Sequence record: NZ_CP014527.1
Direction: 5' to 3' (one strand)
Origin: a plasmid
DNA length: 64,000 bases
Made by a program: the position numbers
In this document: one piece after another, positions 27,001 through 30,000 of the stretch
How the letters are laid out: the number at the start of each line of letters is the position of its first letter
How positions within the stretch are numbered: position 1 is the stretch's first letter

Positions 27001-30000
27001 GCTTCAGCCACTCAACCAGAGCCATGGTATCATCATCATCACGAATACGCCCGACGATTTCGGCCTGCACCTCAGCCTCAAGCACCGACCAGCGCGGGCC
27101 GAAGCGGTCGGGGTGCGACAGGCTCGCCCGGACCGGATCGCAGGCGATGTAATCGCGCCCCTTCTCCAAGGTAAAGGTCTGCCCGTCACGCAACTTGAGA
27201 TGTTTTGCGATAGCCTTCAGCGACAGTTTCGCGGAGGCTATGGCCTTGACCGGTGCCTTGCCGTCCAGAAGCATGATGACTTTATCACGCTGCTCCTTGC
27301 CGAGGGGAACAGCGGCCCCGCTTTCGGTCCTGATCCGCAGCGCATTGACTGTTTCATAAAGAACACGCCGCTGTGTCAGCGGATGAGCCCTTGGCAGGCG
27401 CGGTTCCGGGAAGAACAGACACCGTCCCACCGCTGGTGCTTTCAGGGGACGCTGAAAGAAGATTGTCTCAAACACTTCATGGCGCAGGCTATCTGTCAGC
27501 ACCGGGTGATGTGCGGCCTGCGCAGCCCAGACCTTGTTGAACTCTTCCTCCAGGTGTCGCCGGTCCGGGTAGAAGTCATACCCCGTTTCTGCTTTTCCAC
27601 CGTCAACGGACCGCAAGGTAAGCCGCGTGCGAACAGACGGCACACGGCGCAGATCTTCGGCTTGGCTGCGACGCAGGTGCAGGAATTCGCCATAGGTCCG
27701 CGCTCCGACGGCCATCATCGCCTGATCCAGCCGTGCAGAACCATCGATGATCTTGCCGCCCTCGTTGTTGCCACGGTCCGTTTGGCGGTTCGACTTGAAG
27801 CCCCGCCGTTGGTTAAGATGGAACAACGCCCGCCCGAGTTCGGTAAGTTCCAATCGGCGATCCAGGGCATCGGCCCGCAGACGATAGGGATCCAGTAACT
27901 CCAACGGCTTCGCCTGACTTGGGTCTTCCGGCATCAAACCGGCCGCCGCAAGGCGCCTCATCAACGCTGCACGACGGCGCAAATATCGGTCACGCCGTCG
28001 CCGCAACGCGCGCGCATTGCGACGCTCCACGGCTGACGAAACGCCTGTCTTCGCGTCCCGGCCATCCGAGAAAAGTCTCACGCCACAATCTATAATCTCG
28101 GCAATCATGCCGTTGGTTATGCGATAGAGAAACCAGCCGATGGATGTGGAACCGATGTCGAGCCCAAGACGAAGCATGTTACGAACCCAAATAAAAAAGA
28201 TGGGGGAATAATTGTTCGACCCTTGATTTATGTCAACACACAACGCCATCCAAGGTAGTGATTCAAAGTGGCAAACATCGAGCGTCCCAAATTCGATCGG
28301 ACAGACGGGAGCATTTTCCTGGAAAAGGTGACTGATTGCACCTTGACAACTCACGGCAAATAAATGAGAGTTCGGCTCTCAGAAATTGCGGTCGAGCCGT
28401 TAACAAGCTCGACAGAGCACCACATAGAAACCCGGGGCTACGGCCCCGGGTTTCCTTTTTGTCGTACCCGATCATGAACCTAGATGCATTCCGTATCTTT
28501 ATTGGCCATGGCGGCTCGCAAAAAAAGTCTTCAGCCGATCCTGCCACCCCCAAGCTGCATGGCCCTGATCTTGCCCTGCCCCCTAGGGCACTCCCCCGAA
28601 TGCTGCGGGCATAAACAGAAACACTCAATTAATGAAAACATATTAAACGTATATACGACTATCCGTATTTCTGCAAAAGTAAGTCACGCAACTCATCTGA
28701 AATCTTGCTGCCACGCATGGCACATTGGGCCTTGATGGCACGGTGCAAACTTGCAGGGATATCAATTGTCAACCTCTTCATCGGTTCCTCTGCATCCCGA
28801 CTGTCCACCCATGCATCCGCAGAAACAGGAGCTGACTTGGTTGTCGGCCTGGTCCCGATTGAAACTTTCTTGCTCATACTTTCCCTCTCCGTAATTACAA
28901 AAACCGCTCATAGGCAGAACACAATTCATTCATCAACTTCGTGAACAGAAAGTCCGCGAGCTGCGGCTTCAGCAAAAATAACACGCTGGGTAAGAGACGA
29001 TTCAAAAACAGGAACATCTGGATAAGCTGCCAGCGCCTCACGCACATCGCACCCGATTGCCGTATTTGATATTTTGCGATTTATAACAAATGCGTATTTA
29101 AGGTTTTCTTTAAAAACAATCGCTTCGCCAATAAGCTTGACGACCTCATCTGATGCCCATATGTCGTAAGGCGATGGCTGTGTAGGGATCAGAACAACAT
29201 CGGCGGCCATAACGGCAGATCGGGCTAAATCAGTGACACGGGGTGGCCCGTCAATCACAACGTGATCATAGCCATAGCCAATCTGGCCTATCTCTTTATG
29301 CAATGTTGGACGTGGAAGACCCGCAACTGAAAGCAACGGTGCCGCTTCACGAGCCGCCGCTCAATCAAGGCTGCTGCCTTGCGGATCTGCATCAATCAAC
29401 AAGACACGCCCACCACGACGCGCCAGACTTGCCGCAACATTGACACTGAGTGTTGTTTTCCCAACACCACCCTTCTGATTCAGAAACCCGACAATCATGT
29501 GCGCAGTCCTTCATGATTTAAGGAAAATACTTTTTCTTTAAATCATGAAAACTGTCAAAGGTAAAACAACAGAATGAGGTACATCACCCCGTCGTAGAAA
29601 TAGCTGTTTTTACGACGTGGCCACTCCAGCTACAGGTAAAAGCTGTTCCGGATGCGGATGGTAAAATAACAAATAGAATCAGTGCATTAAGCTGGACAAA
29701 AGATAACCCGGGGATATATGTCATACGTATACATCTACAAGACCCGCGCCCCGGCCTGCACACCACAGGGCCGGGGCTGCCCCATAAATCAGGGAGAACC
29801 CCCGTGACAGACTTCACCAACACCCCGGGCCAGAAAGACACCTTTGTCGGGACCGATAACTGGGACAGCGTGTCTTATTCAAACACCGACAAGCCGGTGC
29901 AGGTAACGCTGCGGGCTGCGGAGTATGTGGACCAAGCCCGCGAAACCGCCCTAATAAAACACCTTGTTTTTAATCATGATAGTTATGGACCTCCCCCTGA

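Follow-up and report, generated by a model that had tools for sequence, protein, structure and literature searches.

Premature stops at tryptophan and glutamine codons point to ordinary pseudogenes in accessory DNA of Haematospirillum jordaniae

Interrupted genes in a 64-kb plasmid stretch

A stretch of 64,000 nucleotides (nt) from a plasmid of Haematospirillum jordaniae (sequence record NZ_CP014527.1; the whole stretch is called the window below) contains four genes that are broken by premature stop codons: parA, which encodes a partition ATPase of the ParF type; tpsB, which encodes the transporter of a two-partner secretion system; a long RTX gene; and a large SPM/RTX exoprotein gene (Table 1). 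A first reading of the window by itself (the original prediction) had drawn attention to stops that replace conserved tryptophans (Trp), and had proposed either recent mutational inactivation with a C-to-T bias or low-level readthrough. By comparing the window with other strains, sister lineages and more distant plasmids, we find it very probable that the stops mark ordinary nonsense-mutation pseudogenes in dispensable accessory genes of H. jordaniae, with no recoding involved.

The window is accessory DNA, in which a plasmid-derived module lies together with secretion genes and phage-like genes. The species, given by an NCBI protein name as H. jordaniae, is a freshwater alphaproteobacterium that causes occasional human infections. 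A literature search brought up case reports and passing mentions of it but, judged by titles and abstracts, nothing on its pseudogenes, and a full-text search with the assembly and run accessions found no paper. The comparison set, located by exact-protein look-up, consisted of about 12 draft assemblies (GCA_0121025xx-28xx) together with Logan assemblies of the read sets SRR11451568-79. Ten H. jordaniae assemblies in this set cover parA (L008-L017, of which L008 is strain GCA_012102795.1). The comparison also took in two sister lineages, Haematospirillum sp. H1815 and Haematospirillum sp. H4485 (L024), and for parA outgroup genes from plasmids of Alcaligenes, Acidithiobacillus and Xanthomonas.

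Stops and frameshifts such as these might be errors of one assembly, for example in homopolymers, and one of the lesions does lie in a homopolymer (a run of eight G, G8, in the exoprotein gene), and the stretch that holds the 1-nt deletion of the RTX gene is rich in G. However, the lesions in parA and tpsB, the RTX junction and the TAG and G8 run of the exoprotein gene were found with the same bases (100% identity across these sites) in independent NCBI assemblies of many isolates and in the Logan assemblies of the read sets. Since independent assemblies agree base for base, an artefact was rejected as having next to no probability, and the lesions can be taken as real.

Table 1. Position of the interrupted genes, their lesions and neighbouring features within the window.
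Feature	Position	Strand	Remarks
tpsA exoprotein gene	13585-19062	-	1825 amino acids, intact; TPS, Fil_haemagg_2 and DUF637 domains
tpsB pseudogene (ShlB/FhaC-type transporter)	19085-20770	-	Two in-frame TAGs; Pfam POTRA_2, POTRA_3 and ShlB on fragments
TAG, tpsB codon 483	19322-19324	-	CAG (Gln), not Trp, in the intact L008 allele
TAG, tpsB codon 330	19781-19783	-	TGG (Trp) in the intact L008 allele
parG-like partner gene	28659-28877	-	72 amino acids, apparently intact; homologue annotated 'plasmid partition protein ParG' in Acidithiobacillus and Xanthomonas plasmids
parA pseudogene (ParF-type partition ATPase)	28926-29498	-	ATG at 29498-29496; Walker A KGGVGKT intact
Junction of 79-nt deletion in parA	28930-28937	-	Between 28934 and 28933; ATG microhomology
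Premature TGA, parA codon 46	29361-29363	-	From TGG (Trp); G-to-A on the coding strand, C-to-T on the + strand
Upstream RTX part, frame A	29804-33271	+	1155 amino acids; own frame ends at TGA 33269-33271; HemolysinCabind, Peptidase_M10_C
Stretch with inferred 1-nt deletion (-1 shift)	33243-33258	+	MAFFT gap immediately before the TAG
TAG in downstream RTX frame	33259-33261	+	Aligned with TGG (Trp) of five paralogous modules
Downstream RTX part, frame B	33262-35031	+	590 open codons; NCBI annotation starts at GTG 33595 (478-amino-acid 'calcium-binding protein')
C-terminal RTX part of the exoprotein	43407-44747	-	Separate open reading frame of 446 amino acids; open reading frame and domain search
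Large SPM/RTX exoprotein gene	44656-48639	-	ATG at 48639; ribosome-binding site AGGGGA upstream
G8 run (C8 on the + strand), +1 frameshift	44678-44685	-	Near the end of the exoprotein gene
TAG, exoprotein codon 23	48571-48573	-	22 codons before, 1305 open codons after
Replication initiator gene (Pfam RPA, PF10134)	22488-23063	-	Covers only profile positions 96-228 of 228
Type II CRISPR-Cas locus	23177-28354	-	cas9 24992-28354 (1061 amino acids called), cas1 24021-24932, cas2 23680-24024
CRISPR array	about 23177-23605	-	Seven 36-nt repeats GTTGCTGCTTGACCGCAATTTCTGAGATGCTAGTCT; spacers of 29-30 nt
Second ParA gene	36840-37520		Domain search

Ancestral codons and additional lesions

In the case of parA, membership of the ParA family is indicated by a deviant Walker A motif at residues 7-16 and by matches to the Pfam families AAA_31 (3.5e-26) and CbiA (1.9e-18). 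When the Trp is restored, the protein is about 80-81% identical in amino acids to annotated plasmid ParA, and its best relative of solved structure is ParF of TP228 (PDB 4dzz; E=1.1e-25 over residues 2-187). The Walker A motif, the position of the Trp after 'DPQ' and the parG-like gene that follows immediately downstream all resemble the type Ib ParF-ParG system of TP228 (PDB 4dzz, 4e03, 4e07, 4e09). Where ParF of TP228 has this Trp, the parA of the window has a stop codon, and its last 26 codons are gone; where an uninterrupted gene would run to about 206-215 codons and include a C-terminal helix, it is broken by the TGA and by the 79-nt deletion, and is best described as a remnant rather than a working ParF.

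The original prediction had placed the TGA exactly on a conserved Trp, and this was borne out. The stop aligns with the Trp of '...DTDPQMSLTNW' in ParF of TP228, and the codon is TGG in every homologue examined, including those of all three outgroup plasmids. It is likewise TGG in H1815, whose parA is an intact open reading frame of 215 amino acids with 97.5% DNA identity. As H1815 and the outgroups share TGG, the change to TGA took place on the H. jordaniae branch. A comparison of the 3' ends revealed that the gene also lacks 79 nt that are present in H1815, H4485 and the outgroups, a deletion which removed the 26 codons of the ParF-like C-terminal helix and created the terminal TGA (28926-28928); the outgroup ParA proteins are 209 amino acids long, with the C-terminal extension. 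Both lesions are found in 10/10 of the H. jordaniae assemblies that cover the gene, within an 898-nt parA-parG stretch that is 99.9-100% identical among them.

The parA of H4485 (positions 1-505 of L024) is damaged in a different way: its first 57 codons are missing, with unrelated DNA upstream, and it carries a 9-nt in-frame deletion. It represents an independent decay of the same partition gene. In H. jordaniae the inactivation is young relative to the divergence of the species, yet fixed in the sample. We infer that parA is dispensable, because the window has a second ParA gene and because the replication initiator gene adjacent to the module is truncated; the partition module is then probably a redundant remnant. 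A megablast search of the parA region against the plasmids of PLSDB gave no match, nor did a scan of metagenomes for the parA site, whichever of the two bases was put in third place of the codon.

In the case of tpsB, a transporter gene with POTRA and ShlB-type domains lies beside an exoprotein gene with a TPS domain, as expected for two-partner secretion, but the transporter is not intact. The two TAGs are present in the window and in most strains, while L008 alone has an intact tpsB, which encodes 561 amino acids and differs from the window allele at 32/1686 nt. Among these 32 differences two are nonsense changes and the rest are mostly synonymous. With the L008 allele as reference, both stops are G:C-to-A:T transitions. 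The original prediction had counted both TAGs among its stops, and both are indeed in frame, but only the one at codon 330 replaces Trp, whereas the one at codon 483 replaces glutamine (Gln).

The partner exoprotein varies in length, with 1825 amino acids in the window versus 1922 and 1947 amino acids in two other strains (L008 and L009), and tpsA is followed by an open reading frame of 157 amino acids (region 13115-19062, - strand). This combination of a variable TpsA C-terminus and a small open reading frame looks like the toxin/immunity arrangement of contact-dependent inhibition systems.

The RTX gene belongs to its family by virtue of tandem GGxGxD nonapeptide repeats (Pfam HemolysinCabind). 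The upstream open reading frame of 1155 amino acids ends in '...FSKEGPRGRRPRQP' directly before its stop, and the RTX repeats carry on in the -1 frame. In a MAFFT DNA alignment of six paralogous modules, a 1-nt gap falls right before the TAG, where the other modules have TGG in 5/5 cases; with a 1-nt shift, the spacing from the conserved serine to the Trp position (S+10) fits the module consensus. Because the frame of the TAG is shifted by -1 from that of the upstream open reading frame, a 1-nt deletion must be placed just before it. Thus, the TAG reported by the original prediction exists, and its descent from TGG is plausible given the paralogues, but it is out of frame with the upstream reading frame, and the frameshift had been overlooked.

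The RTX junction is identical in three other strain assemblies. In L008, by contrast with positions 32904-34432 of the window, a segment of about 1.4 kb that includes the frameshift and the TAG is absent, and this deletion evidently arose through recombination between repeated modules. The L008 gene is nevertheless broken, by an independent CAG-to-TAG change at another site, at which the window has CAG. A homologue search found no protein or orthologue spanning the RTX junction, the best match being the 478-amino-acid downstream fragment itself. L008 also has an additional serralysin-like (Peptidase_M10) RTX gene of 817 amino acids, together with a resolvase.

The TAG at codon 23 of the large exoprotein gene, which the original prediction had also listed, is present, and the gene carries a second lesion near its end. 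When one G is removed from the G8 run, the exoprotein is joined to the downstream RTX open reading frame of 446 amino acids, restoring '...GHGGDAEGDILINI' / '...GKGHGGDAEGDILINIQ...'. All 4 further assemblies that were checked have the same TAG, and the 3 of them that extend to the G8 run have the same run; exact-protein look-ups of the neighbouring proteins brought up no strain that differs in either. A second C8/G8 run, at 21028-21035, precedes the start of tpsB by about 260 nt. Each of the two is a candidate for slipped-strand phase variation; the exoprotein run, which was the one checked, has a constant length in all assemblies examined.

Taken together, these comparisons remove the notion of single changes in otherwise open frames, as the original prediction had described the damage: parA carries the 79-nt deletion, the RTX gene the 1-nt deletion and the exoprotein gene the frameshift at G8. 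They also bear on its second proposal, that the stops are functional. Under this reading, a near-cognate tRNA-Trp or a suppressor tRNA would insert Trp at a low level at the UGA of parA, and perhaps at UAG in other genes, so that some full-length protein would still be made and the stops would act as attenuators of expression. UGA is the leakiest of the stops and is misread by tRNA-Trp, as known from work in E. coli; the TGA sits exactly on a Trp codon and is kept in every sampled H. jordaniae strain, in an open reading frame that is otherwise little changed. Yet a read-through ParA would still be short of its last 26 codons, no readthrough could rescue the frameshifts in the RTX and exoprotein genes, and one tpsB TAG and the RTX TAG of L008 replace Gln, not Trp. 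The sister lineages have either a plain TGG (H1815) or a differently truncated parA (H4485). The base that follows the parA stop is G, and TGAG is not known as a notably leaky context. A tRNA scan that covered the 64-kb window and 12 related loci found no tRNA genes in them. We therefore consider functional readthrough very improbable. The original prediction had named relatives that share a stop together with further decay of the gene as the sign that would speak against readthrough, and this is what was found for parA.

A reassigned genetic code fares no better. An in-frame TGA at a conserved Trp in parA recalls UGA-to-Trp reassignment (genetic code 4) or leaky UGA, but here TGA is the main terminator, ending 25 of the 42 called genes in the region (TAG ends 9 and TAA 8), a single gene is concerned, this gene is damaged at a second place, and TGG stands at the site in the sister species. 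Neither TGA nor TAG is rare as a terminator of intact genes, and the in-frame stops are not conserved across relatives in otherwise intact genes. Reassignment was accordingly rejected on stop-codon usage. The standard genetic code applies, and readthrough is neither needed nor sufficient to restore the genes.

Mutational origin and fate of the interrupted genes

Turning to the origin of the stops, transitions lead to a stop only from TGG (by two routes), CAG, CAA and CGA. It is because C-to-T and G-to-A transitions create stops only at Trp, Gln or CGA-arginine codons that the stops fall on Trp and Gln. Base editing by iSTOP or CRISPR-STOP (for CRISPR, clustered regularly interspaced short palindromic repeats) uses the same set of codons, CAA, CAG, CGA and TGG, to introduce stops; unlike in base editing, the transitions here are spontaneous rather than engineered. 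In the affected genes, TGG accounts for 90 of the 195 transition-to-stop routes (46%). The ancestral codons of the five stops that could be polarised, or assigned from paralogues, were Trp in three cases (parA, tpsB codon 330 and the RTX gene) and Gln in two (tpsB codon 483 and the RTX gene of L008), which agrees with that share of routes. The genetic code and the customary mutation bias are enough to account for the Trp pattern, and the emphasis that had been placed on Trp falls away.

All five of these nonsense changes are G:C-to-A:T transitions. To set them against the local background, we used the 5.3-kb cas-parG stretch, polarised with two outgroup species, in which G:C-to-A:T transitions make up 31/64 fixed and 15/27 polymorphic derived changes, with similar values on the outgroup branches. 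They are the commonest class of substitution in this segment, and by a rough calculation from its counts they are about 1.7x as frequent per site as the reverse class. This spectrum agrees with the bias of mutation towards AT that is general among bacteria (Hershberg and Petrov 2010, PMC2936535; Hildebrand et al. 2010, PMC2936529). Thus mutational inactivation with a C-to-T bias, the first proposal of the original prediction, stands: relatives hold sense codons at the sites that could be polarised, these five nonsense changes are uniformly of this class, and the class prevails nearby.

A run of identical transitions might also be the trace of enzymatic hypermutation, in which a cytosine deaminase, such as an interbacterial deaminase toxin, would have made the stops in a C-to-T burst. 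In addition to the uniformity of the nonsense changes, the 5' neighbour of the mutated C is C at the three sites where the codon does not fix it. Against this, the flanking 5.3-kb segment has only the usual AT bias, with about 50% G:C-to-A:T changes, and the outgroup branches look similar; the lesions differ in age, as the parA TGA is in all strains and the tpsB stops are absent from one; and indels are present besides the C-to-T changes. With an ordinary spectrum on all branches, deaminase hypermutation was rejected, and we give it practically no weight.

Our preferred explanation, ordinary pseudogene formation, runs as follows. Very probably, spontaneous G:C-to-A:T transitions, the most frequent kind of mutation in this lineage as among bacteria at large, made stops out of TGG or CAG codons in three of the genes, namely parA, tpsB and RTX (in the last, TGG as judged from the paralogues), and as the genes were probably dispensable, the lesions persisted. 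Others then piled up: parA lost 79 nt, tpsB gained its second stop, the RTX gene lost 1 nt and the G8 run of the exoprotein gene slipped by +1. The stops would terminate translation normally, and the truncated products are likely to be non-functional. In support of this, a sense codon is found in relatives of parA (TGG in H1815) and tpsB (TGG and CAG in L008) and, for the RTX stop of L008, in the window (CAG), so that H1815 polarises parA and L008 tpsB; additional lesions in the same gene accompany the stops in parA, tpsB, the RTX gene and the exoprotein gene. Transition-type stops facing sense codons in relatives, indels, independent hits and a location in accessory genes are all familiar from bacterial pseudogenes under G:C-to-A:T bias. 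There is no material difference from known cases, to which the window adds a new set of examples.

Several observations sit less comfortably with this explanation. There has been little decay of parA after its inactivation, the H. jordaniae branch showing 3 synonymous and 1 non-synonymous changes besides the TGA and the 3' deletion, and a residual ParA function at trace level through UGA leakiness is conceivable on the sequence, with a product that would still lack the C-terminal segment. For the exoprotein TAG, no ancestral codon was found; a homologue search with the N-terminal 450 amino acids gave distant SPM-domain matches, none of which covers the N-terminus. The TGG ancestry of the RTX TAG comes from paralogues, not from an orthologue. 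Finally, transversions outnumber transitions about 4x among the routes to a stop, yet all five nonsense changes are transitions. With an expected transition share of about 56% (a rough estimate), the probability of five out of five is about 0.05, so that the excess is mild and not significant.

It is also conceivable that the losses were not neutral, and that the inactivation of TpsB/TpsA, the RTX protein and the large RTX exoprotein was favoured by selection, for immune evasion or to save costs. Three exported-protein systems are damaged within one 64-kb window, the RTX gene was broken twice, by separate events in two lineages, and tpsB has its two nonsense changes among so few differences, the remainder being mostly synonymous. 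However, few events are involved, and genes that are long and repetitive offer large targets for mutation. Decay in this region has also reached parA, whose product is not secreted, and the replication initiator gene, and this fits a general relaxation of selection on an accessory element. We therefore regard selected loss as unlikely, although it is the least improbable of the alternatives weighed here. A broader version, in which selection in the H. jordaniae lineage sheds surface and secreted proteins while the exoprotein G8 run acts as a slipped-strand on/off switch, seems slightly less likely still. The described isolates of the species come from human infections, and were the loss of exported proteins a selected one, this would be relevant to the evolution of this emerging opportunistic pathogen; as it stands, the comparisons offer a suggestion, and nothing firmer, of selected loss or of G8 phase variation.

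Under the preferred explanation of ordinary nonsense mutation, the parFG-like module, tpsB, the main RTX gene and the large RTX exoprotein gene are to be annotated as pseudogenes. More generally, mutation biased towards transitions is expected to yield stops at Trp and Gln codons, and alone they are no evidence of recoding.

Neighbouring genes and mobile cargo

The G+C content of the window ranges from 50 to 66% in 2-kb windows. Its genes include a P2-like tail cluster, tpsB/tpsA, a type II CRISPR-Cas locus, the parA/parG module and several RTX genes, and further a second parA, recombinases, a TacA/GNAT toxin-antitoxin pair and restriction-modification-like genes.

The CRISPR-Cas locus is compact and directly adjoins the plasmid partition module. 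Its array region aligns only patchily between strains, which suggests differing spacer content. At the border with the array, the replication initiator gene appears to be 5'-truncated and to be another remnant of plasmid maintenance.

An open reading frame of the phage capsid family (41901-43009, - strand; 234 amino acids, Pfam positions 35-277 of 280) directly follows another of 134 amino acids that matches no family, and lies away from the tail cluster at about 3.5-12 kb; this lone capsid-family open reading frame may be a prophage fragment or a split gene. A TacA-like antitoxin and GNAT acetyltransferase toxin pair is found at 41036-41842 (+ strand), and a large N6/N4 DNA methyltransferase gene followed by a ResIII-type helicase gene at 53959-58707 (+ strand); both are typical cargo of mobile elements.

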